This document shows positions 12,872 to 64,000 of a DNA stretch of 64,000 bases, in pieces. Position 1 is the first letter of the stretch, and every line of letters starts with the position of its first letter. The stretch is taken from assembly GCA_964016885.1 (NCBI GenBank), contig OZ024764.1, positions 27,466,001-27,530,000 on the forward strand, in the 5' to 3' direction. Below the pieces are notes generated by a model. That model saw nothing but the letters and a program-made list of their open reading frames with translations, ran no database searches and had not been told where the DNA came from. The DNA comes from Eledone cirrhosa (lineage: Eukaryota). A program made the translations under genes and the position numbers.

Positions 12872-12972
12872 TGTTCTTGTATTTCCATAGAAAAGGTAAA
12901 GAAAAGAAGAATGCTCTATGTATTGTACAGAGCTATTTAATTACATAATAAACAACAGAATATAATTATTCC

Positions 12973-13732: not shown

Positions 13733-14262
13733 CAAATGAATATATATATATATACTACTAAAGTGTATGTAAAATTTTAAAATAAATACTTAAATTCAAT
13801 TTGTATAATTACACATACAATATGTTTTGTTGTAAAACCCTAAATAATGATTTAAGAAATGATGTCAATCTCTTTGTACAGAGAAAAACAATTTATATAT
13901 ATGCATCGTGTGCGCGTGTATACTCCATTTAAGACAGCGAAAAACCTAGTACCTCCTTCAAAGAATGCCAAATAGTTTATGCCTAAGGTGTAACACTAAT
14001 TAAGTTACTGGTATAGATATTTCAGTTGAACCCTGCTTCAAACATGCATATTATTATTATATATTTTCAAACACACTTACATACATTATATTTATACACA
14101 TAGAAATGTTAAAACTAAAGTATAATGATATAACAACAGTATATAATAGTTTTCTTCACTTTATTGAGATGCAATCGTTTTAAAGAAAAAACATGACAGT
14201 ATAAGAAATATTTAATATGATAACATAATATTTCAGGTAGGATGGTGGTTTCTCTTTGAACT

Positions 14263-14433
14263 AATAATTGTTTCTACTTTAGGCACAAGGCCAGCAATTA
14301 ACCAGTACATTACTGGTACTTTATTTTATCGACCCCGTAAGGATGAAAGGCAAAGTTAACCTCGGATCGTAAAGGGACGTAACTATGCTGGAAAGCATGG
14401 CGTCAGACCCTCTACCGATACTGCCAATTCACC
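14263..14433 (-). mobile_element. SINE copy within the insertion
   Basis: GGCACAAGGCCAGCAATT...TACTGGTACTTTATTTTATCGACCCCGTAAGGATGAAAGGCAAAGT...CTACCGATACTGCCAATTCACC is the same family as 784-952; a duplicate lies at 24342-24512. Confidence 0.8.
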
Positions 14434-14631
14434 ATACAGTATAATTATACAAATATGCATATAGATAGCAATATATATACACTAATATGTATGTACATAT
14501 TTATACATATATACATATATATAGGGAGAGAGAGAGACACATGTATGTATATATATATACACATGCGTGTATGTATGTGTTTATGTACATTCTTCGGTAT
14601 ATATATATGAGTCACGGTTTATTACACATTG

Positions 14632-15965
14632 GAGACACAGAGAGAAAGAGTTGAAACGAGAGGTGAGAGAGTTGAAACAAGAGAGGAGAGAGTTGAAACG
14701 AGAAAAGAGAGAGAGAGTTGAAACGAGAGGAGAGAGAGAGAGAGTTGTAACGAGAGGAGAGAGAGAGAGAGAGTTGAAACGAGAGGAGAGAGAGTTGAAA
14801 CGAGGAGAGAGTTGAAACAAGAGGGTGAGGGGAGAGAGGGGAGAGAGTGATGAAACGAGTCGGAGATAGAGTGTGAAAGAGAGAGAGAGAGGAAGAGAGA
14901 GAGAGAGAGGAAGAGAGAGAGAGAGGAAGAGAGAGAGAGAGGAAGAGAGAGAGAGGAAGAGAGAGAGAGGAAGAGGGAGAGGGGGGATGAAACAAGAGGG
15001 TGAGGGATGAAACAAGAGAGAGAGGGGAGAGAAAGAGAGAGGGGAGAGAAAGAGAGAGAGAGAGAGAGAACGAATTGAAACAAGAGAGAGATGAAACAAG
15101 TGAGGGATTAGAGTGTTGAAACAAGAGAGAGAGGAAGAGAGAGAGAGAGCAAGATGGAACGAGAGAGAGAGAGCGAGATGAAATGAGAGCGAGATGAAAC
15201 GAGAGAGAGAGAGAGTGAGATGAAATGAGAGAGAGAGAGAGCGAGAGAGAGAGCGATATGAAACGAGAGAGAGAGAGAGAGAGAGAGAGCGAGATGAAAT
15301 GAGACAGAGAGAGCGAGATGAAACGAGAGAGAGAGAGAGCGAGATGAAATGAGAGAGTGAGTGCGAGATGAAATGAGAGAGAGTGAGAGCGACATGAAAT
15401 GAGAGAGAGAGAGCGAGATGAAACGAGAGAGAGAGAGAGCGAGATGAAATGAGAGAGAGTCAGAGCGAGATGAAATGAGAGAGTGAGAGCGAGATGAAAT
15501 GAGAGAGAGAGAGCGAGATGAAATGAGAGAGAGTGAGAGCGAGATGAAATGAGAGAGAGAGAGCGAGATGAAATGAGAGAGAGAGGAAACGAGACTAGAG
15601 AGCGAGATGAAACAGGAGAGAGAGAGCGAGATGAAACAGGAGAGAGAGAGCGAGATGAAACAGGAGAGAGAGAGCGAGATGAAACGAGAGGGAGAGAGAG
15701 ATGAAATGAGAGAGCGAGAGAGAGATAGAGGGAGATGAAACGACAGAGAGAGAGACAGATGAAACGAGAGAGAGAAATAGAGATGAAACGAGAGAGAGTG
15801 ATGAAACGAGAGAGAGGAAGAGAGAGATGGAACGAGAGAGAGGAAGAGAGAGATGGAACGAGAGAGAGGAAGACAGAGATGAAATGAGAGAGAGGAAGAC
15901 AGAGATGAAACGAGAGAGAGAGAGAGCGAGATGAAACGAGAGAGAGAGAGCGCGAGATGAAACTC
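14632..15965 (+). repeat. GA-rich degenerate repeat block (single-monomer copy)
   Basis: GCGAGATGAAA(C/T)GAGAGAGAGAGA units, typically ~24 bp; the first ~450 bp use GTTGAAAC variants. Confidence 0.95.
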
Positions 15966-16307
15966 TGTCATGTAATGTTATGGACATATCTGCCCCTGGG
16001 GCTAATAATTGTCATGTAATGTTATGGTCATCTCTGCCCCTGTGGTTAATAATTCTGTCATGTAATGTTATGGTCATGTCTGCACCTGTGGCTAATAAAT
16101 CTGTCATGTAATGTTATGGTCATCTCTGCCCCTGTGGCTAATAATTCTGTCATGTAATGTTATGGACATCTCTGCCCCTGTGGCTAATAATTCTGACATG
16201 TAATGTTATGGACATCTCTGCCCCGGTGGCTAATAATTCTGACATGTAATGTTATGGACATCTCTGCCCCTGTGGCTAATAATTCTGACATGTAATGTTA
16301 TGGACAT
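15966..16307 (+). repeat. 46-bp minisatellite block, ~7.5 units (single-monomer copy)
   Basis: TGTCATGTAATGTTATGGACATCTCTGCCCCTGTGGCTAATAATTC; the first unit is a 44-bp variant. Confidence 0.97.
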
Positions 16308-16324
16308 TGCTATCTTGTTTCATC

Positions 16325-17923
16325 TCAAACAGCAAAGTGCAAGAAGAGAAAATTGTCGTGTACAGAACTGTGAATTAAGATTTAGAAGAGGATCAGATAT
16401 GAGCTGCTCTAATTTACCAACTAGTAATGATAGCTGTTGTTTTGTGGGGGATTGAGGGCACACCACCTGTACAAAGAGATATTATCATCTTTCCTAAAGA
16501 CCATCCTCCTCAGAAAATACCACATAATGCATGCCACTTGGACCTCATGACCGACCGATAATGGTGAATTTTGGTGGCATAGTGCCATGGAGAGGAATGT
16601 AGGACCTGTGTTTGCAATAGACTGACAATGCAGGAGTATTACATATACTGTATAGCATATAGAGGAGGATTTAGTGCGATATATAGGGCAGGTAAATTAT
16701 TTTAGCAGTATTTAGTGGATGCCTATATGAAAGTAGAGGGATGCAGGCTTCAATATTTGAGGAACAATCAAGCCCAATTGTGAGTGGATGAGTATAATGG
16801 TTTAATGAATTATCTAAACAGATGATAACACTGAGCCTTAAAAAATGAAGACAAGATAAGAAACAGAGAAGACATTGACAGAATCGTGTCAGCAGAAATA
16901 CCTGCATTGGAAGATGATCCAGTACTACATGAGCAGGTTTAAAAGTTTATGATCCACAGGCCATGTGGTTCTGGAAACCCTTTTCCCCCATTTATACAAA
17001 ATGGATTTTTCAAAAAGAACTATCCAAAAACCTACAGAAGGGAAACATTATTGAACCTAAATGGATACCCAGAGTACAGGAGGTGCAAGACAGGAACTGC
17101 AGTGTAAATTGGATGACATTCAGTAGATAACAGGAATGTTATGCCATTTAATGCCTTTTTGCTTAAGAAATATTGTGCACATATTAATGTTGAAGTTTGC
17201 GCTTCTGTAAAAAGTGTCAAGTACCTCTTTAAATATGTTACATGGGGCATGATTGTACATCTATAGAAGTAACGAATAATGCATTACCTAATGAGGCTCA
17301 GAACCAACACAACCATGATGAAATAAGAACCTATCTTTGTTGCAGGTATGTGTCTCAGCCAGAAGCAGTGTCGTGTCTCTCGGAATTTAAGCTTCATGGT
17401 ACATCACATACAGTATACAGCCTAGCCACACACCTGGAGAACAAACAGAGTTTACTTTCAAAGAGGCAATGCTCAGGTTGTGGTAGAAATGCAGGGACCC
17501 TTGCTGCCTGGTTCAAGCTAAATGAACTTGCTTACACCTTCTGGGATGCCGCCTCACTAACTCCAATTATAAGCAGGATCAATAATAATGCTTCTATGGA
17601 ATATTTCAATCCAGAACAGATTATGTAATGGCACAAGATTAGAAGTAGTAGAACTGCATAAACATTTTATCAAAGCTTCTCATATCTATGGTCCTTTGAT
17701 GGGCAGGTGTGTTTTGATCCCAAGACTGAAGTTATCCCCCAGTGGTGCCAACATCCCTTTTACTTTGGAAAGACCCCAGTTTCCATTAAGACTGTCATAT
17801 GCCATGACAATCAACAAGAACCATGGTCAAATACATGATAAAGTGGGTCTGTTCCTCCCTGAGCAAGTATTTAACCCTGGACAATTGTATGTTGCTTTTT
17901 CAAGAGTTCACAGACAGATGTAA
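16325..17923 (+). pseudogene. Helitron copy 3, 3' part
   Basis: Near-identical to 1057-2654, including the same stops, frameshifts and deletions. Confidence 0.93.
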
Positions 17924-18495
17924 AAATTAATCCTAGCAAACCCCCACCACTCCTACAACTGTTAGCTGTTAGCCCACCCCCAGCACCACCCAACCTCCGT
18001 TCTAGTCCCACCGTTAGAACCAATGCTGCTTACCCTGCCTCTTTTACTAGTTCACTCCGTCGCTCGAATTTCAAAGCTGGCCCTCTACACTTGGTCGTTG
18101 CCAGCTCACCACCTGGTTGTGCTCTCTGTGTCCGCACTAGCCGGTACCTAAACACAATAAAATGTCACCTGTGCTACCAAAACTACCACAGGAACTCTGT
18201 CGGCATCAGCAAGGCTCAAGCCGAAAGGCTTCAATACTAGACCTGTAATCAGGGCCACTTTACCTCCGACGACCAGCTTTCTACCGAGTGTGTGTTGATG
18301 GAGGGGACATGAGACCAGCAAAGTCCTAGGAGTAGAGACTAGTAAATAATAAACGGTCCTAGCTATGTTAAGAATATATATAAGAAAAATGTTCTATACA
18401 TTTAAGAAGACAAGAGAAATAAATATTTACCTCTTTCATGTAGGTAATATAGCGGTGTTATAAAAGTATAATAACTGATGCAGGTAGTTTGTTTC

Positions 18496-18753
18496 AAACT
18501 ATAACACATATAACTCTATCAGTGAAGCCCTTTAGTATAGGTCAACTGGGAAACTATAACACATATAACCCTATCAGTGAAGCCCTCTGGGAAACTATAA
18601 CACATATAACTCTATCAGTGAAGCCCTTTAGTATAGGTCAACTGGGAAACTATAACACATATAACCCTATCAGTGAAGTCCTTTAGTATAGGTCAACTGG
18701 GAAATTATAACACATATAACCCTATCAGTGAAGTCCTTTAGTATAGGTCAACT
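18496..18753. repeat. 55-bp minisatellite, 5 units
   Basis: Same repeat as 3226-3703, with four fewer units. Confidence 0.95.
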
Positions 18754-18905
18754 AACAGAAGTATTACGGGTATGGAAAAAATTCTAAATAAGCCTACAAC
18801 AGTCATTGCGGGCCACTCTGACTGGTCAGGTGGGCTCGATTGTGGCCCGCGGGCCGCCTGTTGCACGCCCCTCCTTTAGACAGAATATCTATCACTGTTA
18901 AGTAA

Positions 18906-19115
18906 TACTGTGATCTGTCGGCTAACTACATTTTCCAGCCTGTGGCGTTTGGGGGAGTCGGGATACTGACTGCGAGATTCCTATCTTCACTGGCGGCTAG
19001 CCTGACGAAGGTGACTGGTGAAGCTCGTGAGGGCACTTGGTTGTTCCAGCTCCTCAGCCTCGCCATCGCCCGAGGTAACGCTGCAGACGTGCTGGCTTGC
19101 CTAAAAAATCATTAG
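18906..19115 (+). pseudogene. CRE fragment A, copy 2
   Basis: Near-identical to 3795-4004 (FQPVAF). Confidence 0.8.
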
Positions 19116-19198
19116 AGAGGTTTCCCAGTGCTCCTCGCGATACTGTTATCTTTTGCTCTAGTAGCAGCTCGTTTGTCCACCCCTTTCGCCTGCCTTTG

Positions 19199-19381
19199 GT
19201 TGTATGTCGTCCTAGATGTGTGTATTACCTGCTTGTGTGTTGTATGTGGTCCTAGATGTGTGTATTACCTGCTTATGTGGTCCTAGATGTATGTATTACC
19301 TGCTGGTGTGTTGTATGTGGTCCCAGATGTGTGGATTACCTGTTTTTGTGTTGTATGTGGTCCCAAATGTGTGTGCTACCC
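19199..19381. repeat. 40-bp minisatellite, copy 2
   Basis: Same as 4088-4270. Confidence 0.9.
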
Positions 19382-20775
19382 GCTTCTGTGATTTGTTGTT
19401 TCTTCTTTCTCTCTTCCGAGAAACAATCCTGTATTTTTTTAATCTATTCCATGCGTTAAGTAATTAGCAGCAACAACAAACTGATTTTCAGTTGTAAAAA
19501 GAATCTTTAAACCTTCACCATTTACATTAACACATACCATACGTTGTCCCAGCCACAAATAAACAGTAAAAAAAACTTACTTTGCGGTTAAATTCTTCAC
19601 AATTAAAAGAAAAATATTTCTAACACGTTTCTAGACAACACCAAGTTTACACCTTCAATATCCGGTAAAAGTAAAAACAAATTCTGGAGACATTTAACGA
19701 AACGAAACTATGTAAAGAAAAACGAAAATTAAACGAAGACAAATAGTAAATTTTAATTTTTATTAAATAAAATACCAGTAATTCACTGCAGTAGATTTAA
19801 TCAACTTTACTCTCTCTGCACGAAAGAAGAAAAAAATTCCTGACTTAGTGCTTAATATATAGAGAGGGGGAGAGTTTGGTGTTACTTCATATAGAGAGGG
19901 GTATTGGAAGAGAGTGCCGTGTAGTAGATATAGAGAGGGAGAGAGTGTGTGCTAATTGATATAAAGAGGGGGATTTGCACCCCCCCCCCCGCCTAGAAAA
20001 ATTCTGAAATGCTTCGACCTCCCTGTACATATATATATATATATAGTATACACACACAGACATATATATAGTAAATAAATGTGTGTGTGTATCAGTGGTC
20101 GCCAAACTTTTCTGTTCCACACCCCTCCTCTAAAATATGTTTATGTTCCCCTTTAATATAAAAACAATCCGAGTATTCTGAAAGTATTATTACTGTAATA
20201 TAAAGTAGAAACCCTTTATTTAAACAAAGCTACGATGCAGCGATGATCAAAACAAACTTCTCGTAGGTGCTGCCAAGCGGGGAAAAGTGGATGTATAATG
20301 ATGATGATATATATATATATGCCCCACCCTTGCAAACAGGGAAAAGCAGACGTAAAATGAAAATGATGATATATATATAGATAGATAGATATGTATATAT
20401 ATATATTTATACTTATACGTCATGGTGGCTACAGGTGCCAAGAGGAAGAAGCCGGTCAAATCCTCTGATATTTGTTTATCTTCCTTTCCTTTGTATATAT
20501 ATATATAGTATGTGTGTGTGTATGAAGATGTATGACCCCTAGCAAGCCAAACTACAGTTACTCCCCAACATGGAGAGCAAATTAAAACATTACCTGTTAG
20601 AGACGAACGTGAAATGATTTGTTAGTGAACTACCGGTGTCACAGTAATTATGTTACCGGTGTAACTATTTCTGTTTACCTTATTTTTAAATGACACTCCT
20701 ATATTAGTTTAGTGACCTTTCAATTCAAATAAATTCTTGATGATGATTGAACTCGCATCGGAGTAGCCCAACGCC

Positions 20776-21163
20776 TTGGCCTCCGCCGCGTGTGTGAGCC
20801 ACATAAATGCTCTCAACGACATAGTGAGAAGAAGCCTGGACGCAGCTGAATTTCCATCTCAACTGGAGTCAGCAGGCTTAGGCCGCGGAGATGGCAAGCA
20901 CCCCGAGGGAATCACCCTCTTCCCATTCGAAGGAGGTAGATCCACAAACCCCAGCATCGCTGCCCGTCTCGCAGATGAACATAAAATAAACAAATTCCGG
21001 TGTTTGTCCTGGAGCCTCTTCTAAGCACCAGCCGCCGTCGAGACCCCGGGCCAACTTGGACCCGTTACAGCCGAGCTCCTCCGCAACATCGCAGTGTCTG
21101 TGGCCCGTCTGAGGATGGAGTCCCACGAGGTTGGATGCCTGTTGCAGCAGGTGTTAGTGTCCT
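20776..21163 (+). pseudogene. CRE fragment B, copy 2
   Basis: LNDIVRRSL..LESAGLGRGDGKHPEGITLFPF...AVETPGQLGP. Confidence 0.82.
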
Positions 21164-21293
21164 TACATATATATACGTAAATGTTCCCTTGACTGCTATT
21201 TCTAGCATATATTAATAGACACTTTAGAAACAGCAGCTAAAAATCAAGAAACAACAGTGTGTGTCTGTATATATATACACAGAGAGAAAGAGA

Positions 21294-21332
<39 letters not shown>

Positions 21333-21412
21333 CAGCCAAAGACACGCACACACGAACATACACATACACACAGGTGTATGTCTGCGTGTATGTATATATG
21401 TGTGTGTGTCTT

Positions 21413-21526
<114 letters not shown>

Positions 21527-21549
21527 GTCAGTGATCCCCCTCGCAACCT

Positions 21550-22140
21550 TTAATTAAACAAACCTGCGATGAGGCGATGATCAAAATAAACACCAAAGTA
21601 TAAACAAACAGCCCATAGGTGCTGCCGGATACACGATAACATGTGTAGACGAAGTAAAACTTTTATTACTGTAATATAAAGTAGAAACCCTTTATTTAAA
21701 CAAAGCTGCGATGCAGCGATGATCAAAACAAACTTCAAATAACATGTGTATACGAAGTGTATCTGGAAGCTTGGTCGTATTATATGACTTTCAAATTGAC
21801 CCCTATTATATTCAAATTATCCCCTGTGGGGCGTGCACCCCACGTTGAGAATCCCTCATAAATAAATATATGTGAGTGTGTTGCTATGACTGCTATTTCT
21901 AGCAGGTTTACTGCAGTCCTGTAGACGCACAACAAAAACCGGAAGTGGCAGCCATTAAAAAACTTTGGCTTAAAATCAGGCAAAAGTTTTTTAACAATTT
22001 GCCAAGAAAGATAACTCTTGTCTTACTTAATCGCAAAAATCGAGGCAAAAATTTTGTGGGTGTACAGTTTGTTTGGTGTATTTGACTGCTATTTCTAGCA
22101 TGTATGGACACTTTAGAAATAGCAGCGAAAAACGGAAAAC
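21550..22140 (+). mobile_element. Foldback-family element without an inverted partner
   Basis: Matches 6430-6860, then follows the variant seen at window positions 1-68. Confidence 0.75.
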
Positions 22141-22443
22141 AGCAGAAAGAAGGACACACACCTATATATATATATATATATACCAGCTATACACTCACCC
22201 ATACATATATATATATACCAGCTATACACACACCCATATCTACGTATAGGTGTGTGTGCGCGCGTGTATGTATATATAAATATATATATTTAAATGTATA
22301 TATCTGTGCATATATATATGTATATATATATACGTGTGTGTCCTTCTTTCTTATGTTTCCCGTGATGAGCTGCAAAAGACTAAGATTAAGTTTTAAGATG
22401 TGAAAAATATAAAACTGAAATTTCATATAAAAGTTCAAATATA

Positions 22444-22674
22444 GCTACAGCCACAAACCTAGGCTCCACACCCCGCAATGCAAAGGATAGTAAGATAGTA
22501 CCAAGGCCTGACTCACCTCTTCCACTCTATTGAGACCTCTGCCATACTTGGTCCCTGTACTGCTGATTTCCTCCATAAAGTCGGGAGGAAAGACAACAGG
22601 AGCCTCATGAGGAGGGGCGACTATTGTAGCAGGTGTCTCTGGCCTTGCTCCGAGGTAACGCTTTTACGTTTCTT
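22444..22674 (+). pseudogene. CRE fragment C, copy 3
   Basis: Near-identical to 9760-9990. Confidence 0.7.
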
Positions 22675-23029
22675 CCACAGGTTGCGGCTGAGGGACCACT
22701 TAGACTGGGGTGAAGTGTCTGTCCCTCCCCCGACTTCTTACTTCTTTTTTTTTCTCATTTTCATTTTCTTTTCTCTTCTTGCTTATCTCTGCTATACCAC
22801 GGCATCAAAAACATATATAATATGTGTATGTATGGTATAGGTGTATTTATATTTAGGATAGTTATCAAAGGTAAATAGACTGGTTGGAGCAATAACAGTC
22901 TTGTTTATGTATATACATATATATATATCTTTTATATGTTTGTTCTTGTATTTCCATAGAAAAGGTAAAGAAAAGAAGAGTGCTCTATGTATTGTTCAGA
23001 GCTATTTAATTACATAATAAACAACAGAA

Positions 23030-23771
23030 TGGAAAACATTCAGACAGAGAAGAATGGATAATGAGCGTTGTAAGAGAAATTGGCCAACAATTAATATTAA
23101 TGGAAATGTAGAAGAATTTCATATTAGTGATATGAATGTTTCGTGTGATCACTGTGGAGCTTTGAAATTTAGAAATGAAAATTGTAACTGTTGTAATAAA
23201 GGAAAGGTTGTGTTGCCACCATTGCAAATATACCCTGAGAGACTGAGAAATCTCTTTGAAAGAGGCCAGGAAGCAGTTGATTTCACAGAAACATCTGCAA
23301 TTAAAACTACATTTATTTCACTTCATTTGGTGTTACCACCCGGCAGAGGCCCGTATAGCTTTCATATTCAGGGTCAAACATATCACTACACCCCCATCTC
23401 TGTAACCTGCAGAAAATACACCACAATATGGCCAGTTATATATTATTGATGGGAACGAAGGTATGTAGCACAGATTGGAAGTACGTCCAAATAATTGTTT
23501 CTAGCACAAGGCCAGCAATTACTGGTACTTTATTCTATCGACCTAATAAGGATGAAAACAAAGTCAACCTTGGAGGGATTTGAACCCAGAACGTAAGGGG
23601 ACATAACCCTATGCTGTAAAGCATGGTGTCTGGCGCTCTACCGATACTGCCAATCCACTGCCCTAGTACCAACAAATAATGACTGCTCACCACAAAAAAT
23701 GGCTATGATAAGAGAAGTGTTGCATGAATGTAATTCATATGTCGAAGTGTACAATACAATGCATGGCATCA
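23030..23771 (+). pseudogene. Helitron copy 4, 5' part (SINE at 23496-23664, minus strand)
   Basis: Matches copy 3 and is interrupted at the same ATGGCATCA|CAAATGAAT junction. It has a 30-bp deletion between AGAAT repeats at its start. Confidence 0.92.
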
Positions 23772-23775
23772 CAAA

Positions 23776-23812
<37 letters not shown>

Positions 23813-24699
23813 TACTAAAGAGTATGTAAAATTTTAAAATAAATACTTAAATTCAATTTGTATAATTACACATACAATATGTTTTGTTGTAAAACCCTAA
23901 ATAATGATTTAAGAAATGATGTCAATCTCTTTGTACAGAGAAAAACAATTTATATATATGCATTGTGTGCGCGTGTATACTCCATTTAAGACAGTGAAAA
24001 ACCTAGTACCTCCTTCAAAGAATGCCAAATAGTTTATGCCTAAGGTGTAACACTAATTAAGTTACCGGTGTAGATATTTCAGTTGAACCCTGCTTCAAAC
24101 ATGCATATTATTATTATATATTTTCAAACACACTTACATACATTATATTTATACACATAGAAATAATAAGTTAAAACTAAAGTATAATGATATAACAACA
24201 GTATATAATAGTTTTCTTCACTTTATTGAAATGCAATCGTTTTAAAGAAAAAACATGACAGTATAAGAAATATTTAATATGATAACATAATATTTCAGGT
24301 AGGATGGTCGTTTCTCTATGATGGTGGTTTCTCTCTGAACTAATAATTGTTTCTATTTTAGGCACAAGGTCAGTAATTAACCAGTACATTACTGGTACTT
24401 TATTTTATCGACCCCGTAAGGATGAAAGGCAAAGTTGACCTCGGATCGTAAAGGGACGTAACTATGCTGGAAAGCATGGCGTCAGACCCTCTACCGATAC
24501 TGCCAATTCACCATACAGTATAATTATACAAATATGCATATAGATAGCAATATATATACACTAATATGTATGTACATATTTACACATATGTACATATATA
24601 TAGGGAGAGAGAGAGACACATGTATGTATATATATATACACATGCGTGTATGCATGTGTGTTTATGTACATTCTTCGGTATATATATCGGTATACACAT

Positions 24700-24967
24700 T
24701 GGAGACACAGAGAGAGAGAGCTGAAACGAGAGGTGAGAGAGTTGAAACAAGAGAGGAGATGGTTGAAACACTAGGAGAGAGAGAGAGTTGAAACGAGAGG
24801 AGAGAGAGAGAGAGTTGAAACAAGAGGGTGAGGGGGGAGAGGAAGAGAGAGAGAGAGGAAGAGAGAGAGAGGGGATGAGAGAGAGGAATAGAGATAGAGG
24901 GGAAGAGAGAGAGGGGGAGAGAAGGGGATGAAACAACAGAGAGAGGGGAGAGAAAGAGAGAGGGGAT

Positions 24968-25002
<35 letters not shown>

Positions 25003-52000: not shown

Positions 52001-53630
52001 ATTGTCATGTAATGTTATGGACATATCTACCCTTGGGGCTAATAATTGTCATGTAATGTTATGTACATCTCTGCCCCTGTGGCAAATAATTCTGTCATGT
52101 AATGTTATGGACACCTCTGTCCCTGTGGCTAATAATTATGTCATGTAATGTTATGGACATCTCTGCCCCTGTGGCTAATAATTCTGTCATGTAATGTTAT
52201 GGACATCTCTGCCCCTGTGGCTAATAAATTCGTCATGTAATGTTATGGACATCTCTGCCCCTGTGGCTAATAAATCTGTCATGTAATGTTTTGGACATCT
52301 CTTCCCCTGTGGCTAATAATTCTGACATGTAATGTTATGGATATCTCTGCCCCTGTGGCTAATAATTCTGAGAGAGATGAAACACGTGAGGGATAAGAGA
52401 GAGATGAAACAAGTGAGGGATTAGAGTGTTGAAACAAGAGAGAGAGAGGAAGAGAGAGTGAGAGCGAGATCAAACGAGAGAGAGAGAGCGAGATGAAATG
52501 AGAGAGTGAGAGCGAGATGAAACGAGAGAGAGAGAGCGAGATGAAATGAGAGAGAGAGAGCGAGATGAAATGAGAGAGAGAGAGCGAGATGAAACGAGAC
52601 AGAGAGAGCGAGGTGAAACGAGAGAGAGAGAGAGCGAAATGAAACGAGACAGATTAGAGCGAGATGAAACGAGAGAGAGAGAGAGCAAGATGAAATGAGA
52701 GAGAGAGAGCGAGATGAAACGAGAGAGTGAGAGCTAGAGTAAACGATAGAGAGAGGAAACGAGAGAGAGAGGAAACGAGAGAGAGGATACGAGAGAGAGG
52801 AAACGAGAGTAGAGAGCGAGATGAAACAGGAGAGAGAGAGCGAGATGAAACAGGAGAGAGAGAGCGAGATGAAACGAGAGGGAGAGTGAGATGAAACGAG
52901 AGAGCGAGAGAGAGATAGAGGGAGATGAAACGACAGAGAGAGAGACAGATGAAACGAGGGAGATAGAGATGAAACGAGAGAGAGAGATGAAACGAGAGAG
53001 AGGAAGAGAGAGATGGAACGAGAGAGAGGAAGAGAGAGATGGAACGAGAGAGAGGAAGGCAGAGATGAAACGAGAGAGAGAGAGAGAGCGAGATGAAACG
53101 AGAGAGAGGAAGAGAGAGAACGCGAGATGAAACGAGAGAGAGAGCAAGATGAAACGAGAGAGAGGAAGAGAGAGAGCGCAAGATGAAACGAGAGAGAGAG
53201 AGCGCGAGATGGAAGTCTGTCATGTAATGTTATGGACATATCTGCCCTTGGGGCTAATAATTGTCATGTAATGTTATGGAAATCTCTGCCCCTGTGGCTA
53301 ATAATTCTGTCATGTAATGTTATGGACATCTCTGCCCCTGTGGCTAATAATTCTGTCATGTAATGTTATGGACATCTCTGCCCCTGTGGCTAATAAATCT
53401 GTCATGTAATGTTATGGACATCTCTGCCCCTGTGGCTAATAATTCTGACATGTAATGTTATGGACATCTCTGCCCCTGTGGCTAATAAATATGACATGTA
53501 ATGTTATGGACATCTCTGCCCCTGTGGCTAATAAATCTGTCATGTAATGTTATGGACATCTCTGCCCCTGTGGCTAATAATTCTGACATGTAATGTTATG
53601 GACATCTCTGCCCCTGTGGCTAATAATTCT
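24700..53630 (+). repeat. Composite satellite, forward arm: alternating GA-rich blocks (~0.65-2.0 kb) and 46-bp blocks (~8-15 units), with a ~4.84 kb higher-order repeat
   Basis: About 18 composite monomers. Identical spurious ORFs recur at offset 4836 (31595/36431, 33038/37874, 34281/39117). Confidence 0.97.
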
Positions 53631-56600
53631 GATTTATTAGCCACAGGGGCAGAGATGTCCATAACATTACATGACAGAATTATTAGCCACAGGGGCAGAG
53701 ATTTCCATAACATTACATGTCAGAATTATTAGCCACAGGGGCAGAGATGTCCATAACATTACATGTCAGAATTATTAGCCACAGGGGCAGAGATGTCCAT
53801 AACATTACATGACAGAATTATTAGCCACAGGGGCAGAGATGACCATAACATTACATGACAATTATTAGCCACAGGGGCAGATATGTCAATAACATTACAT
53901 GACAGAGTTTCATCTTGCGCTCTCTCTCTCTCGTTTCATCTCGCTCTCCCTCTCTCTCGTTTCATCTCTGTCTTCCTCTCTCTCGTTTCATCTCGCTCTC
54001 TCTCTCTCTCGTTTCATCTCTGTCTTCCTCTCTCTCGTTCCATCTCTCTCTTCCTATCTCTCGTTCCATCTCTCTCTTCCTCTCTTTCGTTTCATCTCTA
54101 TCTCCCTTCTTTCATCTGTCTCTCTCTCTGTCGTTTCATCTCGCGCTCTCTCTCTCTCGTTTCATCTTGCGCTCTCTCTCTCTCGTTTCGTCTTGCTCTC
54201 TCTCTCTCTCGTTTCATCTCTGTCTTCCTCTCTCTCGTTCCATCTCTCTATTCCTCTCTCTCGTTCCATCTCTCTCATCCTCTCTCTCGTTTCATCTCTA
54301 TCTCCCTCCTTTCATCTGTCTCTCTCTCTGTCGTTTCATCTCGCGCTCTCTCTCTCTCGTTTCATCTTGCGCTCTCTCTCTCTCGTTTCATCTCGTTCTC
54401 TCTCTCGTTTCATCTCTGTCTTCCTCTCTCTCGTTCCATCTCTCTCTTCCTCTCTCTCGTTCCATCTCTCTCTTCCTCTCTCTCGTTTCATCTCTATCTC
54501 CCTTCTTTCATCTGTCTCGCTCTCTGTCGTTTCATCTCGCGCTCTCTCTCTCTCGTTTCATGTCGCGCTCTCTCTCTCTCGTTTCATCTCGCTCTCTCTC
54601 TCTCGTTTCATCTCTGTCTTCCTCTCTCTCGTGCCATCTCTCTCTTCCTCTCTCTCTTCCTCTCTCTCGTTTCATCTCTATCTCCCTTGTTTCATCTCTC
54701 TCTCGCTCTCTCGTTTCATCTCTCTCTCCCTCTCGTTTCATCTCGCTCTCTCTCTCCTGTTTCATCTCGCTCTCTCTCTCTCGTTTCATCTCTGTCTTCC
54801 TCTCTCTCGTTCCATCTCTGTCTTCCTCTCTCTCGTTCCATCTCTCGCTTCCTCTCTCTCGTTTCATCTCGCTCTCCCTCGTTTCATCTCTCTCTCGCTC
54901 TCTCGTTTCATCTCTCTCTCCCTCTCATTTCATCTCGCTCTCTCTCTCCTGTTTCATCTGGCTCTCTCTCTCTCTCCTGTTTCATCTCGCTCTCTACTCT
55001 CGTTTCCTCTCTCTCTCTCGTTTCATCTCTCTCTCCCTCCCGTTTCATCTCGCTCTCTCTCTCTCATTTCATCTCGCTCTCTCTCTCTCGTTTCATCTCG
55101 CTCTCCCTCTCTCGTTTCATCCCGCTCTCACTCTCTCATTTCTTCTCGCTCTCTCTCTCTTGTTTCAACACTCTAATCCCTCACTTGTTTACTATCTCTC
55201 AGAATTATTAGCCACAGGGGCAGCGATGACCATAACATTACATGTCAGAATTATTAGCCACAAGGGCAGAGATGTCCATAACATTACATGACAGAATTAT
55301 TAGCCACAGGGGCAGAGATGACCATAACATTACATGACAATTATTAGCCACAGGGGCAGATATGTCAATAACATTACATGACAGAGTTTCATCTCGCGCT
55401 CTCTCTCTCTCGTTTCATCTTGCTCTCTCTCTCGTTTCATCTCTGTCTTCCTCTCTCTCGTTCCATCTCTCTCTTCCTCTCTCTCGTTCCATCTCTCTCA
55501 TCCTCTCTCTCGTTTCATCTCTATCTCCCTCCTTTCATCTGTCTCTCTCTCTGTCGTTTCATCTCGCGCTCTCTCTCTCTCGTTTCATCTCGCGCTCTCT
55601 CTGTCTCGTTTCATCTCGCTCTCTCTCTCTCTCGTTTCATCTCTGTCTTCCTCTCTCTCGTTCCATCTCTCTCTTCCTCTCTCTCGTTCCATCTCTCTCT
55701 TCCTCTCTCTCGTTTCATCTCTATCTCCCTCGTTTCATCTCTCTCTCGCTCTCTCGTTTCATCTCTCTCTCCCGCTCGTTTCTTTTCGCCCTCTCTCTCC
55801 TGTTTCATCTCGCTCTCTACTCTCGTTTCCTCTCTCTCATTTCCTCTCTCTCTCGTTTCCTCTCTGTCTCGTTTCATCTCACTCTCTCTCTTTCTCGTTT
55901 GATCTCGCTCTCACTCTCTCGTTTCATCTCGCTTCTCTCACTCTCTTGTTTCATCTCGCTCTCTCTCTCTCTTCCTCTCTCTCTCTTGTTTCAACACTCT
56001 AATCCCTCACTTGTTTTATCTCTCTCTAATCCCTCACTTGGTTCATCTCTCTCAGAATTATTAGCCACAGGGGCAGAGATGTCCATAACATTACATGTCA
56101 GAATTATTAGCCACAGGGCAGAGATGTCCATAACATTACATGTCAGAATTATATGCCACTGGGGCAGAGATGTCCATAACATTACATGTCAGAATTATTA
56201 GCCACAGGGGTAGAGATGTCCATAACATTACATGTCAGAATTATTAGCCACAGGGGCAGAGATGTCCATAACATTACATGACAGAGTTATTAGCCACAGG
56301 GGCAGTGATGTCCATAACATTACATGACAATTATTAGCCCCAAGGGCAGATATGTCCATAACATTACATGACAGAGTTCCATCTCGCGCTCTCTCTCTTC
56401 CTCTCTCTCGTTTCATCTCGCTCTCTCTCTCTCTCGTTTCATCTCGCTCTCTCGTTTCATCTCGCTCTCTCGTTTCATCTCGCTCTCTCTCGTTTCATCT
56501 CTGTCTTCCTCTCTCTCGTTCCATCTCTCTCTTCCTCTCTCTCGTTCCATCTCTCTCTTCCTCTCTCTCGTTTCATTTCTATCTCCCTCCTTTCATCTGT

Positions 56601-59600
56601 CTCTCTCTCTGTCGTTTCATCTCGCGCTCTCTCTCTCTCGATTCATCTCGCGCTCTCTCTCTCTCGTTTCATCTCGCTCTCTCTCTCTCTCGTTTCATCT
56701 CTGTCTTCCTCTCTCGCGTTCCATCTCTCTCTTCCTCCCTCTCTTCCTCTCTCTCGTTTCATCTCTATCTCCCTCGTTTCATCTCTCTCTCCCTCTCGTT
56801 TCATCTCGCTCTCTCTCTCCTGTTTCATCTCGCTCTCTACTCTCGTTTCCTCTCTCTCGTTTCCTCTCTGTCTCGTTCCATCCCGCTCTCTCTCTCTCTC
56901 ATTACATCTCGCTCTCTCTGTCTCGTTTCATCTCGCTCTCTCTCTCTCTCGTTTCATCTCGCTCTCACTCTCTCGTTTCATCTCGCGTTTCATCTCACTC
57001 TCCCTGTCTCATTTCACCTCGCTCTCTCTCTCTCTTCCTCTCTCTCTCTTGTTTCAACACTCTAATCCCTCACTTGTTTTATCTCTCTCTAATCCCTCAC
57101 TTGTTTCATCTCTCTCAGAATTATTAGCCACAGGGGCAGAGATGTCCATAACATTACATGTCAGAATTATTAGCCACAGGGCAGAGATGTCCATAACATT
57201 ACATGTCAGAGTTATTAGCCACAGGGGCAGAGATGTCCATAACATTACATGTCAGAATTATTAGCCACGGGGGCGGAGACGTCCATAACATTACATGACA
57301 GAATTATTAGCCACAGGGGCAGAGATGACCATAACATTACATGACAATTATTAGCCACAGGGGCAGATATATCAATAACATTACATGATAGAGTTTCATC
57401 TCGCGCTCTCTCTCTCTCGTTTCATCTTGCTCTCTCTCTCTCTCGTTTCATCTCTGTCTTCCTCTCTCTCGTTCCATCTCTCTCTTCCTCTCTCTCGTTC
57501 CATCTCTCTCATCCTCTCTCTCGTTTCATCTCTATCTCCCTCCTTTCATCTGTCTCTCTCTGTCGTTTCATCTCGTGCTCTCTCTCTCTCGTTTCATCTC
57601 GCGCTCTCTCTGTCTCGTTTCATCTCGCTCTCTCTCTCTCTCGTTTCATCTCTGTCTTCCTCTCTCACGTTCCATCTCTCTCTTCCTCTCTCTCGTTCCA
57701 TCTCTCTCTTCCTCTCTCTCGTTTCATCTCTATCTCCCTCGTTTCATCTCTCTCTCGCTCTCTCGTTTCATCTCTCTCTCCCTCTCGTTTCATCTCGCTC
57801 TCTACTCTCGTTTCCTCTCTCTCGTTTCCTCTCTGTCTCGTTCCATCCCGCTCTCTCTCTCTCACATTACATCTCGCTCTCTCTCTCTCGTTTCATCTCG
57901 CTCTCACTCTCTCGTTTCATCTCGCTTCTCTCACTATTGCGTTTCATCTCGCTCTCCCTGTCTCATTTCATCTCGCTCTCTCTCTCTCTCTTCCTCTCTC
58001 TCTCTTGTTTCAACACTCTAATCCCTCACTTGTTTTATCTCTCTCTAATCCCTCCCTTGTTTCATCTCTCTCAGAATTATTAGCCACTGGGGCAGAGATG
58101 TCCATAACATTACATGTCAGAGTTATTAGCCACAGGGGCAGAGATGTCCATAACATTACATGACAGAGTTTCATCTCGCGCTCTCTCTCTCTCGTTTCAT
58201 CTCGCGCTCTCTCTCTTCCTCTCTCTCGTTTCATCTCGCTCTCTCTCTCTCTCGTTTCACCTCTGTCTTTCATCTCTCTCTTCCTCTCTCTCGTTCCATC
58301 TCTCTCTTCCTCTCTCTCGTTTCATCTCTATCTCCCTCCTTTCATCTGTCTCTCTCTCTGTCGTTTCATCTCGCGCTCTCTCTCTCTCGTTTCATCTCGC
58401 GCTCTCTCTCTCTCGTTTCATCTCGCTCTCTCTCTCTCTCGTTACATCTCTGTCTTCCTCTCTCTCGTTCCATCTCTCTCTTCCTCTCTCTCTTCCTCTC
58501 TCTCGTTTCATCTCTATCTCCCTCGTTTCATCTCTCTCTCCCTCTCGTTTCATCTCGCTCTCTCTCTCCTGTTTCATCTCGCTCTCTACTCTCGTTTCCT
58601 CTCTCTCGTTTCCTCTCTGTCTCGTTCCATCCCGCTCTCTCTCTCATTACATCTCGCTCTCTCTGTCTCGTTTCATCTCGCCCTCTCTCTCTCTCGTTTC
58701 ATCTCGCTCTCACTCTCTCGTTTCATCTCGCGTTTCATCTCACTCTCCCTGTCTCATTTCATCTCGCTCTCTCTCTCTCTTCCTCTCTCTCTCTTGTTTC
58801 AACACTCTAATCCCTCACTTGTTTTATCTCTCTCTAATCCCTCACTTGTTTCATCTCTCTCAGAATTATTAGCCACAGGGGCAGAGATGTCCATAACATT
58901 ACATGTCAGAATTATTAGCCACAGGGCAGAGATGTCCATAACATTACATGTCAGAATTATTAGCCACAGGGGCAGAGATGTCCATAACATTACATGTCAG
59001 AATTATTAGCCACAGGGGCGGAGACGTCCATAACATTACATGACAGAATTATTAGCCACAGGGGCAGAGATGACCATAACATTACATGACAATTATTAGC
59101 CACAGGGGCAGATATATCAATAACATTACATGATAGACTTTCATCTCGCGCTCTCTCTCTCTCGTTTCATCTTGCGCTCTCTCTCTCTCGTTTCATCTTG
59201 CTCTCTCTCTCGTTTCATCTCTGTATTCCTCTCTCTCGTTCCATCTCTCTATTCCTCTCTCTCGTTCCATCTCTCTCATCCTCTCTCTCGTTTTATCTGT
59301 ATCTCCCTCCTTCAATCTGTCTCTCTCTCTGTCGTTTCATCTCGTGCTCTCTCTGTCTCGTTTCATCTCGCGCTCTCTCTGTCTCGTTTCATCTCGCTCT
59401 CTCTCTCTCTCTCGTTTTATCTCTGTCTTCCTCTCTCTCGTTCCATCTCTCTCTTCCTCTTTCTCGTTCCATCTCTCTCTTCCTCTCTCTCGTTTCATCT
59501 CTATCTCCCTCGTTTCATCTCTCTCTCGCTCTCTCGTTTCATCTCTCTCTCCCTCTCGTTTCATCTCTCTCTCTACTCTCGTTTCCTCTCTCTCGTTTCC

Positions 59601-62600
59601 TCTCTGTCTCGTTCCATCCCGCTCTCTCTCTCTCTCATTACATCTCGCTCTCTCTGTCTCGTTTCATCTCGCTCTCTCTCGCTCTCGTTTCATCTCGCTC
59701 TCACTCTCTCGTTTCATCTCGCTTCTCTCACTATTGCGTTTCATCTCGCTCTCCCTGTCTCATTTCATCTCGCTCTCTCTCTCTCTTCCTCTCTCTTGTT
59801 TCAACACCCTAATCCCTCACTTGTTTTATCTCTCTCTAATCCCTCACTTGTTTCATCTCTCTCAGAATTATTAGCCACAGGGGCAGAGATGTCCATAACA
59901 TTACATGTCAGAGTTATTAGCCACAGGGGCAGAGATGTCCATAACGTTACATGACAATTATTAGCCCCAAGGGCAGATATGTCCATAACATTACATGACA
60001 GAGTTTCATCTCGCGCTCTCTCTCTCTCGTTTCATCTCGCGCTCTCTCTCTTCCTCTCTCTCGTTTCATCTCGCTCTCTCTCTCTCTCGTTTCACCTCTG
60101 TCTTCCATCTCTCTCTTCCTCTCTCTCGTTCCATCTCACTCTTCCTCTCTCTCATTTCATCTCTCTCTCTCGTTTCATCTCTATCTCTCTCTCGTTTCAT
60201 CTGTCTCTCTCTCTGTCGTTTCATCTCCCTCTATCTCTCTCTCCCTCTCGTTTCATCTCGCTCTCTCTCTCCTGTTTCATCTCGCTCTCTCTCTCTCCTG
60301 TTTCATCTCGCTCTCTACTCTCGTTTCCTCTCTCTCTCCCTCCTGTTTCATCTCGCTCTCTCTCTCTCGTTTCATCTCGCTCTCACTCTCTCGTTTCATC
60401 TCGCTCTCTCTCTGTCTCGTTTCATCTCGCTCTCTCTCTCTCATTTCATCTCGCTCTCTCTCTCTCTCATTTCATCTCGCTCTCTCTCTCTCGTTTCATC
60501 TCGCTCTCACTCTCTCGTTTCATCTCGCTCTCACTCTCTCGTTTCATCTCGCTCTCCCTGTCTCGTTTCATCTCGCTCACACTCTCTCATTTCATCTCGC
60601 TCTCTCTCTCTTCTTTCAACACTCTAATCCCTCACTTGTTTCATCTCTCTCAGAATTATTAGCCACAGGGGCAGAGATGACCATAACATTACATGTCAGA
60701 ATTATTAGCCACAGGGGCAGAGATGTCCATAACATTACATGTCAGAATCATTAGCCACAGGGGCAGAGATGTCCATAACATTACATGACAGAATTATTAG
60801 CCACAGGGGCAGAGATGACCATAACATTACATGACAATTATTAGCCACAGGGGCAGATATGTCAATAACATTACATGACAGAGTTTCATCTCGCGCTCTC
60901 TCTCTCTCTCGTTTCATCTTGCGCTCTTTCTCTCTCGTTTCCTCTCGCTCTCTCTCTCTCTCGTTTCATCTCTGTCTTCCTCTCTCTCGTTCCATCTCTC
61001 TCTTCCTCTCTCTCGTTCCATCTCTCTCTTCCTCTCTCTCGTTTCATCTGTCTCTCTCTCTCTTCCTCTCTCTCGTTCCATCTCTCTCTTCCTCTCTCTC
61101 GTTTCATCTCTATCTCCCTCGTTTCATCTCTCTCTCGCTCTCTCGTTTCATCTCTCTCTCCCTCTCGTCTCATCTCGCTCTCTCTCTTCTGTTTCATCTC
61201 GCTCTCTACTCTCGTCTCCTCTCTGTCGTTTCCTCTCTGTCTCGTTTCATCTCGCTCTCCCTGTCTCATTTCATCTCGCTCTCTCTCTCTCTCTTCCTCT
61301 CTGTCTCTTGTTTCAACACTCTAATCCCTCACTTGTTTTATCTCTCTCTAATCCCTCACTTGTTTCATCTCTCTCAGAATTATTAGCCACAGGGGCAGAG
61401 ATGTCCATAACATTACATGTCAGAGTTATTAGCCACAGGGGCAGAGATGTCCATAACGTTACATGACAATTATTAGCCCCAAGGGCAGATATGTCCATAA
61501 CATTACATGACAGAGTTTCATCTCGCGCTCTCTCTCTCTCGTTTCATCTCGCGCTCTCTCTCTTCCTCTCTCTCGTTTCATCTCGCTCTCTCTCTCTCGT
61601 TTCAACTCTGTCTTCCATCTCTCTCTTCCTCTCTCTCGTTCCATCTCACTCTTCCTCTCTCTCATTTCATCTCTCTCTCTCGTTTCATCTCTATCTCTCT
61701 CTCTCGTTTCATCTGTCTCTCTCTCTGTCGTTTCATCTCCCTCTATCTCTCTCTCCCTCTCGTTTCATCTCGCTCTCTCTCTCCTGTTTCATCTCGCTCT
61801 CTCTCTCTCCTGTTTCATCTCGCTCTCTACTCTCGTTTCCTCTCTCTCTCCCTCCTGTTTCATCTCGCTCTCTCTCTCTCGTTTCATCTCGCTCTCACTC
61901 TCTCGTTTCATCTCGCTCTCTCTCTGTCTCGTTTCATCTCGCTCTCTCTCTCTCATTTCATCTCGCTCTCTCTCTCTCATTTCATCTCGCTCTCTCTCTC
62001 TCGTTTCATCTCGCTCTCACTCTCTCGTTTCATCTCGCTCTCACTCTCTCGTTTCATCTCGCTCTCCCTGTCTCGTTTCATCTCGCTCACACTCTCTCAT
62101 TTCATCTCGCTCTCTCTCTCTTCTTTCAACACTCTAATCCCTCACTTGTTTCATCTCTCTCAGAATTATTAGCCACAGGGGCAGAGATGACCATAACATT
62201 ACATGTCAGAATTATTAGCCACAGGGGCAGAGATGTCCATAACATTACATGTCAGAATCATTAGCCACAGGGGCAGAGATGTCCATAACATTACATGACA
62301 GAATTATTAGCCACAGGGGCAGAGATGACCATAACATTACATGACAATTATTAGCCACAGGGGCAGATATGTCAATAACATTACATGACAGAGTTTCATC
62401 TCGCGCTCTCTCTCTCTCTCGTTTCCTCTCGCTCTCTCTCTCTCTCGTTTCATCTCTGTCTTCCTCTCTCTCTTCCTCTCTCTCGTTCCATCTCTCTCTT
62501 CCTCTCTCTCGTTTCATCTGTCTCTCTCTCTGTCGTTTCATCTCGCGCTCTCTCTCTCTCGTTTCATCTCGCGCTCTCTCTCTCTCATTTCATCTCGCTC

Positions 62601-64000
62601 TCTCTCTCTCTCGTTTCATCTCTGTCTTCCTCTCTCTCTTCCTCTCTCTCGTTCCATCTCTCTCTTCCTCTCTCTCGTTTCATCTCTATCTCCCTCGTTT
62701 CATCTCTCTCTCGCTCTCTCGTTTCATCTCTCTCTCCCTCTCGTTTCATCTCGCTCTCTCTCTTCTGTTTCATCTCGCTCTCTACTCTCGTCTCCTCTCT
62801 GTCGTTTCCTCTCTGTCTCGTTTCATCTCGCTCTCCCTGTCTCATTTCATCTCGCTCTCTCTCTCTCTCTTCCTCTCTGTCTCTTGTTTCAACACTCTAA
62901 TCCCTCACTTGTTTTATCTCTCTCTAATCCCTCACTTGTTTCATCTCTCTTAGAATTATTAGCCACAGGGGCAGAGATGTCCATAACATTACATGTCAGA
63001 ATTATTAGCCACAGGGCAGAGATGTCCATAACATTACATGTCAGAATTATTAGCCACAGGGGCAGAGATGTCCATAACATTACATGACAGAGTTTCATCT
63101 CGCTCTCTCTCTCTCTCGTTTCATCTCTATCTCCCTCCTTTCATCTGTCTCTCTCTTGCTCTCTCTCGTTCCATCTCTATCTTCATCTCTCTCGTTTCAT
63201 CTCTATCTCCCTCCTTTCATCTGTCTCTCTCTCTGTCGTTTCATCTCGCGCTCTCTCTCTCTCGTTTCATCTCGCGCTCTCTCTCTCTTTCTCTCTCTCG
63301 TTTCATCTCTATCTCCCTCGTTTCATCTGTCTCTCGCTCTCTCGTTTCATCTCTCTCTCCCTCTCGTTTCATCTCGCTCTCTACTCTCGTTTCCTCTCTC
63401 TCGCGTTCCATCCCGCTCTCTCTCTCTCTCATTACATCTCGCTCTCTCTGTCTCGTTTCATCTCGCTCTCTCTCTCTCTCGTTTCATCTCGCTCTCACTC
63501 TCTCGTTTCATCTCGCTTCTCTCACTCTCGTGTTTCATCTCGCTCTCCCTGTCTCATTTCATCTCGCTCTCTCTCTCTCTTCCTCTCTCTCTCTTGTTTC
63601 AACACTCTAATCCCTCACTTGTTTCATCTCTCTCAGAATTATTAGCCACAGGGGCAGAGATGTCCATAACATTACATGTCAGAATTATTAGCCACAGGGC
63701 AGAGATGTCCATAACATTACATGTCAGAATTATTAGCCACAGGGGCAGAGATGTCCATAACATTACATGACAGAATTATTAGCCACAGGGGCAGAGATGT
63801 CCATAACATTACATGTCAGAATTATTAGACACAGGGCAGAGATGTCCATAACATTACATGTCAGAATTATTAGCCACAGGGGCAGAGATGTCCATAACAT
63901 TACATGTCAGAATTATTAGCCACAGGGGCCGAGATGTCCATAACATTACATGAAAGAATTATTAGCCACAGGGGCAGAGATGTCCATAACATTACATGAC
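53631..64000 (-). repeat. Composite satellite, inverted arm (runs off the window)
   Basis: Reverse-complement units (CCACAGGGGCAGAGATGTCCATAACATTACATG; TCTCGTTTCATCTCGC) with shorter monomers and mostly 2-7 46-mers per block, including 45-bp variants. Confidence 0.97.

Follow-up and report, generated by a model that had tools for sequence, protein, structure and literature searches.

A satellite array and a single composite monomer at the same site of duplicated Helitron-bearing segments in Eledone cirrhosa

In this study we focus on 64,000 nucleotides of the Eledone cirrhosa genome (assembly GCA_964016885.1, contig OZ024764.1, positions 27,466,001 to 27,530,000 of the forward strand), hereafter the window, which hold remnants of a Helitron transposon, an insert interrupting two of them, and a 39-kb tandem array. 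Self-BLAST finds one unit four times in the first 25.1 kb (copies 1 to 4, Table 1; copy 3 spans 12262-22070). A single site is empty in copy 1, carries in copy 3 a 2.6-kb insert with one composite monomer (one GA-rich block followed by one block of 46-bp units), and opens in copy 4 onto the amplified monomer. The empty, single-monomer and amplified states, which an initial annotation of this DNA had placed side by side, are all real in the window.

Host segments and the insertion site

The host element is a Helitron by its homology to RepHel proteins (Rep N-domain and Pif1 helicase), as originally proposed. Pfam reports Helitron_like_N (PF14214, E=4.4e-7) and Pif1_2B (PF21530, E=6.7e-12) in frame 3 of 1062-2699, with stops read as X. 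Furthermore, 1312 of 2580 candidate homologs of the copy 1 reading reach E<=1e-20, including full-length RepHel, and those among the matches listed bear PF14214 and PF05970. With a full RepHel as query, tblastn gives a single continuous match (aa 303-512) that spans the empty site of copy 1, GGCATCAAACAGC, which occurs once in the 64 kb; in copy 3 the match is interrupted between aa 340 and 341. Since the empty site lies inside an unbroken coding match, the empty state is ancestral. The remnants carry stops and frameshifts, and tblastn matched aa 513-632 of the homolog (with EFQKRGLPHCH, the HUH motif, at 618) and aa 868-1367 (the helicase core) in none of the copies. An autonomous element would carry an intact HUH motif and helicase core, and neither is seen here; judged from its sequence, the local RepHel is dead, without nicking motif and without most of its helicase. 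A scan of 2650-7050 for a Helitron 3' end (hairpin plus CTRR) returned three weak candidates, each without a tight GC hairpin.

The units had been described as Helitron copies. Because they also contain microsatellites, small tandem arrays and pieces resembling other transposons (whose family names are our assumption), they are segmental duplicates of ~7-10 kb rather than clean Helitron copies. They are partly decayed, copy 2 being truncated at 10621 and copy 4 consisting of the 5' part only, with four 5' parts versus two 3' parts in all. At the very start of the window, bases 1-68 correspond to the end of copy 3, which makes a further copy of the unit likely upstream. Copies 1, 3 and 4 are related in a star-like manner, with 10, 10 and 13 private sites respectively among ~833 aligned sites of the Helitron flank. 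Copies 1 and 3 differ at 9 of the first 300 bases past the insertion site (1059-1340, ~3%) and by about 1% or less over 1340-6962; gene conversion or unequal exchange between them after the duplication is likely. They also have in common two alleles (at 16842 and 16958 in copy 3) that are absent from most other sequencing runs.

In copy 3 the insert begins at 13733 and the Helitron is back at 16325/16327, with TCA on both sides (GGCA-TCA and TCA-AACAGC), an overlap of 3 nt; AAACAGCAAAGTGC is found at 1059 and 16327 only. The left junction of copy 4, at 23772, is identical. Both inserts bring the same unique DNA and a piece like a short interspersed element (SINE), presumably related to octopus SINEs. 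Of the 18 substitutions in 872 aligned bases of unique insert DNA, 14 are transitions, a pattern in keeping with real divergence, and the Helitron flanks of the two copies differ to a similar extent (23/834 and 8/462). The amplified unit begins at ~15085 in copy 3 and at 25013 in copy 4, and ~450 bp of older GA repeats upstream are excluded from the amplification. An inverted repeat between the insert ends was looked for and not found. For a Helitron with a central array, the target could be A/T and the start TC, but the end would then be CATC rather than CTRR. The ends thus do not fit, and both a transposon with terminal inverted repeats and a Helitron were rejected as identities of the insert.

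The insert of copy 3 had been thought to end in the monomer. Its 46-bp block is in fact cut mid-unit and followed by a 19-nt inverted filler (16308-16326). The best template of this filler (Table 1) lies in a DNA-transposon-like end, which we take to be hAT-like. In the array, the filler has no site within 2 edits and 413 within 3; its exact match is 15 nt to the local non-array template versus 13-14 nt to the array, a modest margin. The last 13 nt of the filler match monomer heads read backwards, in the orientation of the inverted arm of the array described below.

Further inverted junctions lie nearby, the total being five in 54 kb. The truncation of copy 2 is a perfect 30-bp fold-back (10585-10645) with a 1-nt loop, extended from a natural 6-bp palindrome of copies 1 and 3. 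Between it and the start of the copy 3 segment stands a small satellite (10642-11353), eight copies of an internally palindromic 89-bp unit whose strand flips after the fifth. Moreover, 6531-7049 is duplicated in inverted orientation at 7614-8177 (~520 bp, 16 mismatches in 519 aligned positions) across a microsatellite-rich spacer. The recurrence of such short inverted templated junctions suggests that template switching or synthesis-dependent end joining could be a local process. A transposon-end-like sequence at 9666-9680, 12248-12262 and 22364 has 13-16 nt in common with the motif of the GA block, and its edge coincides with the left boundary of copy 4; that motif may have grown from it, or the match could be due to chance.

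The array and the lone monomer

The array has the build of a satellite, with head-to-tail monomers (18 plus 11 over 39 kb) and a higher-order repeat (HOR), and BLAST detects neither Helitron sequence nor unique insert DNA in 25013-64000. A total of 246 46-bp cores are grouped in 31 blocks, 1 in copy 3, 18 in the forward and 12 in the inverted part of copy 4; monomer counts and trees all exclude the partial one at the end (63635-64000). The monomers measure 683-2383 bp and so are not of uniform length. As first described, the array reaches the end of the window, but it is not one head-to-tail run: the strand flips at 53632/53633, where two arms meet tail to tail. The arms mirror each other no further than 40 bp, where the first mismatch falls, and 400 positions contain 142 mismatches; a fold-back read artefact was rejected for this reason. 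Multi-kb direct and inverted sub-arrays, which define a macro-dyad, are present, with 28.6 kb forward and at least 10.4 kb inverted. This array-scale flip, as read from the assembly, appears to be previously unreported. Given the flip, an array ending in CATCTC/AAACAGC, the end that had been proposed as a check downstream, would need a second flip.

All internal joints, 17/17 in the forward and 11/11 in the inverted arm (28/28), fall on one identical base, a 46-bp unit ending in TTCT being followed by a GA head. In copies 3 and 4 alike, the first monomer has no such joint and is preceded instead by the older GA repeats. The simple reading of 28 joints at one base is a single founding duplication behind all of them. 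The flip falls on this same TTCT/GA base, a coincidence expected by chance in 1 in 46 to 3 in 46. The HOR consists of ~4.83-kb three-monomer units. Of six comparisons between them, five give 2-11 differences and the sixth gives 67 (gapped alignment); the closest pair has 2 mismatches in 4832. Long and short monomer types are 3-4% different, and monomers are more diverse in the inverted than in the forward arm (mean k-mer Jaccard 0.36 versus 0.59). A rolling-circle Helitron concatemer was rejected as a description of the array, which is free of Helitron sequence and whose monomer head starts with GA.

In a k-mer neighbour-joining tree of 30 monomers, the copy 3 monomer sits near the base, outside both arms, and the arms are different subfamilies. 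The initial annotation had reasoned that a captured piece of an old satellite would nest terminally, and this is not what the window's tree gives. The GA-block token of copy 3 also occurs in 18/18 forward and 2/11 inverted monomers, its GGTC second unit in 6/11 inverted and 0/18 forward ones, and its AAC joint in 10/11 inverted monomers and in L01, the edge monomer of the forward arm; CCTGGGG is found in copy 3 and L01 only. The copy 3 monomer is collinear with the simplest array monomer. Each of three 46-bp variants of L01, TAAATTCG, GGAAATC and CTGTCCCTG, recurs in 7-11 of the other 17 forward monomers, and a doubled head is common to L01 and the forward arm; copy 3 has none of these, and L01 is among the monomers least similar to it. 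Since copy 3 is without the three variants that L01 shares with the forward arm, it is not a recent reduction of the copy 4 array. Its lack of the internal joint and its place outside both arms likewise make a recent collapse unlikely.

The 46-bp blocks show 4/320 private substitutions in copy 3 (1.25%) and 6/585 in L01 (1.03%), near the values given by the private Helitron-flank sites of copies 3 and 4. From this agreement, the monomer radiation and the split of copies 3 and 4 look about coeval. An octopus rate is implied by PMC13282606, where a distance of 0.09 corresponds to 25 million years (My). Only if this rate applies would the split and the radiation date to 3-4.5 My and the HOR to less than 0.4 My.

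Table 1. Coordinates of the features in the window.
Feature	Position	Strand	Basis or remark
Copy 1, duplicated unit	69-6962	+	RepHel pseudogene 279..2660, deleted and frameshifted, without aa 513-632 and aa 868-1367 of the homolog
Empty site	1053..1065	+	GGCATCAAACAGC; single occurrence in 64 kb; inside continuous RepHel match
Copy 2, truncated unit	9680..10621	+	terminates in perfect 30-bp fold-back 10585-10645
Best filler template	12250..12269	-	2 edits; second site 9668-9687
Copy 3, 5' part up to insertion site	12262..13732	+	self-BLAST
Copy 3 insert, unique AT-rich DNA and SINE-like piece (14263-14433)	13733..14638	+	alignment
Copy 3, older unamplified GA-rich proto-repeats (TTGAAAC motifs)	14639..15084	+	repeat analysis
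Copy 3, lone composite monomer	15085..16307	+	repeat analysis; GA block 879 bp, 46-bp block of 7 full units and a partial one
Copy 3, inverted filler at right junction, 19 nt	16308..16326	-	template matching
Copy 3, 3' part, Helitron resuming	16327..22070	+	matches 1059-6962
Copy 4, 5' part only	22364..23771	+	self-BLAST
Copy 4 insert, unique DNA, SINE-like piece and proto-repeats as in copy 3	23772..25012	+	alignment
Forward arm	25013..53632	+	18 monomers of 1147-2383 bp, 28.6 kb; diverged edge monomer L01, then ~4.83-kb three-monomer HOR
Tail-to-tail flip	53627..53633		40-bp perfect arms, 7-nt loop, 2-nt GA overlap; same base as monomer joint
Inverted arm	53633..64000	-	11 monomers of 683-1568 bp and a partial one, 10.4 kb; continues past window end

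The duplicated unit has further contents of its own. A 55-bp minisatellite lies at 3226-3703 in copy 1 (~9 units) and at 18496-18753 in copy 3 (~5 units), and a 40-bp one at 4088-4279 and 19199-19390. A short decayed coding-like fragment (5600-6061 and ~20700-21170) has no Pfam match; we presume a resemblance to a retrotransposon end. Rfam gave 81 matches on 1-26500, mainly in microsatellite and palindromic stretches, none of them at the gathering score.

Public sequencing runs

Sequence of the region 12900-14640 is present in seven of the eleven public runs listed, five of them holding 0.51-0.65 of the sampled words; runs X2, X3 and X8, with shares of 0.11, 0.07 and 0.00, were left out of the analysis. 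Of the 31-mers of the region, the Helitron part makes up 0.47 and the SINE part 0.08, so the unique insert DNA is likely also present in X4-X7. The run that covers the region best may be the window's own sample, in which case the support would be partly non-independent.

Four runs under two organism labels were compared over 16143-17342, where summed contig depth is no measure of copy number. The empty site was found in contigs of X4 and X1, the GA-to-46-bp joint of the copy 3 type in X7, X4 and X1, and the tandem joint from 46-bp block to head in X7 and X1. No reliable unrelated flanks, which the initial annotation had named as a sign of a repeat abundant at many loci, were seen among the matches listed in the four runs. 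Near-identical Helitron contigs of X7 have a depth of ~1000-1250, versus 6.5-11.7 for diverged ones. At the positions that differ between copies 1 and 3 (7 of 15 covered among the matches listed), these contigs carry the copy 1 allele at 6 and the copy 3 allele at 1, and the empty form appears to be a common repeat in X7. The ratio of 46-bp depth to Helitron depth is 62 in X7, 14 in X4 and 28 in X1, and ~35 would be expected from the window alone. The Helitron-derived unit (16327-17342) reaches ~100x the depth of its diverged paralogs in X7 and ~2x in X1, hinting at a copy-number gap between the two organism labels, or at library enrichment.

Raw reads of X9, a restriction-site-associated DNA (RAD) library, carry copy-3-like alleles just 3' of the right junction, with for instance the other allele in 24 of 51 reads at 16557. 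Numerous low-agreement loose ends in this run could have been taken for dispersed single 46-bp units. This was rejected because they start or stop at AATT sites (16143, 16189, 16235, 16281, 16411, 16567 and 16695), with reads beginning at a lone GCATGC, and they are read as restriction-ligation chimeras; we take the library enzymes to be MluCI and SphI. Exact 46-bp patterns had 0 matches in metagenome contigs. A description of the GA plus 46-bp repeat was not found in the literature searched, repeat libraries and subscription papers being beyond its reach, and one supplement file of PMC13282606 held no sequence match to the repeat.

Origin of the array

The initial annotation had proposed either the birth of a satellite or the collapse of a large array in copy 3. 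Birth is the best reading: we hold, with about even confidence, that the satellite was born in copy 4 and that a founder-like monomer stayed frozen in copy 3, the Helitron being likely only a passive host of insert and array. In favour of birth in place, fewer events are needed than under any other reading, and the single joint, the basal placement of copy 3 and the matching ages agree with it. The site was empty at first, in a Helitron lacking the nicking motif and most of the helicase. A fragment comprising unique DNA, the SINE-like piece, GA repeats and a 46-bp minisatellite would then have entered through break repair or replication template switching, which may have left the 3-nt overlap, the mid-unit cut and the short inverted filler copied from local DNA. 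Duplication of the filled unit would have given copies 3 and 4, now ~2% diverged. One duplication in copy 4, with a 2-nt GA overlap, would have joined the 46-bp block at its end to the GA head and created the monomer, as all 28 joints suggest. Unequal exchange and slippage could have enlarged and reshaped the array, an inversion could have set one sub-array tail to tail, and the growth of the three-monomer HOR, in the stretch from the old edge monomer to the flip, would be very recent. A frozen monomer of founder age would then remain in copy 3.

Several observations weigh against this scenario. The array ends outside the window. Among the matches listed in the four runs, the right junction of copy 3 is unbridged and the strand-changing joint is absent, although short-read contigs drop rare variants; in X1 the depth of the right-junction bin, 2.75, is that of the empty-site contig alone. 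Whole-monomer mismatch between copy 3 and the others (20 of 30 monomers compared pairwise) is 4.1-7.0%, more than the 2.1% of the unique insert DNA, which may reflect older monomers or misaligned short repeats. In X7 the 46-bp repeat stands at ~60x the Helitron depth and the Helitron at ~100x its diverged paralogs; these values are no copy numbers, but the repeat may belong to a large family whose birthplace is not necessarily the window. Finally, the star of copies 1, 3 and 4, as aligned, gives no shared-derived signal for the order of events, and the monomer tree is a k-mer one without support values.

Capture of the edge of an older satellite is an unlikely but substantial alternative, in which the array pre-existed at a donor, copy 3 holds a 2.6-kb boundary piece and copy 4 is a recombinant of the Helitron 5' half with the donor array. 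The mid-unit cut in copy 3, the 4-7% monomer distances exceeding flank divergence, and the occurrence of composite and joints in other samples under two organism labels, at 14-62x Helitron depth, all suit it, and one-sided Helitron-array hybrids made by recombination have been proposed in PMC8268682 and PMC12628747. It requires one extra event, however, and a depth ratio of ~35 is already expected from the window alone. Moreover, the private substitutions of copy 3 and L01 agree with the flank ages, as does the insert divergence with that of the Helitron flanks. The variants of L01 also bear on a collapse: as copy 3 is not L01-like, only a collapse near the split of copies 3 and 4 fits, the insert being already an array when the unit was duplicated, and recombination of the first forward monomer with the last, through their 46-bp blocks, leaving copy 3 with a single one. 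Such an early collapse, which we consider quite unlikely, would remove every internal joint, and copy 3 has none; the 13 nt of backward monomer head in the filler, in the orientation of the inverted arm, would suit it, and a chimera could share states with both arms as copy 3 does. The filler is nevertheless closer to the local non-array template.

Under misassembly, separate arrays would have been misjoined at the flip or where copy 4 meets the array. The arms do belong to different subfamilies, and flip and right junction are those two joints absent among the matches listed in the four runs; but the window contains no N, the arms do not mirror each other beyond 40 bp, most differences between copies 3 and 4 are transitions, and the X9 reads carry copy-3-like alleles just past the junction, making a misjoin very improbable. 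Least probable of all is rolling-circle amplification, in which the Rep of an active element nicked a hairpin and CTRR-like motif in the 46-bp unit and spun off a concatemer. The coincidence of founding joint and flip at TTCT/GA speaks for it, as do CTGA, which fits CTRR, and a small GC hairpin ~8 nt upstream. This hairpin is weak (-2.1 to -3.3 kcal/mol), the monomer head is GA and not TC, the local RepHel is dead, and the GA overlap accounts for the joint by microhomology. The absence of the catalytic motif, an array free of Helitron sequence and a repeat that is no Helitron-borne central repeat also tell against the Helitron as the source of the satellite, for which documented cases had been invoked. 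A bolder version of birth in place, improbable as a whole, would have the window as birthplace, the founder frozen 10 kb away, and TTCT/GA as a sequence-directed break site responsible for both the founding joint and the flip, its small GC hairpin and CTRR-like end possibly being nicked in trans by a Helitron Rep. If true, a minisatellite would program its own amplification and dyad formation.

The Cg170/CgiSat01 satellites of Crassostrea gigas Helitrons/Helentrons, as presented in PMC8268682 and PMC12628747, include single monomers, element-borne arrays, one-sided hybrids and shuffled opposed arrays. The coexistence of single monomers with short and long arrays, one-sided Helitron parts and opposed array directions recall our locus. 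There, however, the repeat, flanked by conserved end boxes, forms the central array of a non-autonomous element; here a foreign insert interrupts the coding region of a dead RepHel midway, ends of an element were not found, and the three states adjoin in one tandem segment. The miDNA4 satellite model for a miniature inverted-repeat transposable element of Xenopus (Scalvenzi and Pollet, in the summary given by PMC12628747) has a captured repeat, in single or variable arrays, with short microhomologies. Like it, our repeat occurs as one monomer or as an array with short microhomology; unlike it, the insert has no terminal inverted repeats, and the 0.7-2.4-kb monomer is a composite of microsatellite-derived and minisatellite blocks. 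Rolling-circle amplification is the origin given for tandem arrays of truncated Helitrons (Xiong et al. 2016, in the summary of PMC12628747). These likewise show several partly decayed copies, with 5' parts outnumbering 3' parts here, but microsatellites and pieces of other transposons belong to our unit, and no Helitron sequence is in the satellite.

Satellite macro-dyads of Tribolium consist of multi-kb direct and inverted sub-arrays of up to 75 kb, and PMC13081366 states them to be documented in Tribolium only. Opposed sub-arrays of one satellite and a sharp inversion site are common to both cases, and 39 kb is in their range; the present one is a single instance, known from an assembly alone, with arms of different subfamilies. 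Inversions are known in human and Arabidopsis centromeric arrays. Regarding the junctions, snap-back repair by end joining that is synthesis-dependent and microhomology-mediated (SD-MMEJ) uses templates within 30 nt of the break according to PMC5728401, and template switching is part of origin-dependent inverted-repeat amplification (ODIRA) as outlined in PMC10766183. Short inverted templated inserts, fold-backs primed by small palindromes and 2-3 nt joint overlaps are as in these processes, but the distance to the best filler template, 1.5-4 kb, suits fork template switching better than SD-MMEJ.

Taken together, the locus works like a satellite arising from local tandem duplication in a transposon graveyard. 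The kind of event is known, as are all the mechanisms invoked, and no function is shown for the array; it is the preservation that is unusually good. A satellite found inside a Helitron is not necessarily Helitron-made, a caution that this locus illustrates. The first steps of satellites are seldom visible because homogenisation usually erases the founder. Here one contig retains the site in its empty state, the lone monomer, the old monomer at the edge of the array, the inverted sub-array, which is older, and an HOR of very young age, together with a clock given by flank divergence, and therefore the order and timing of the joint, the inversion and the growth of the HOR are testable.

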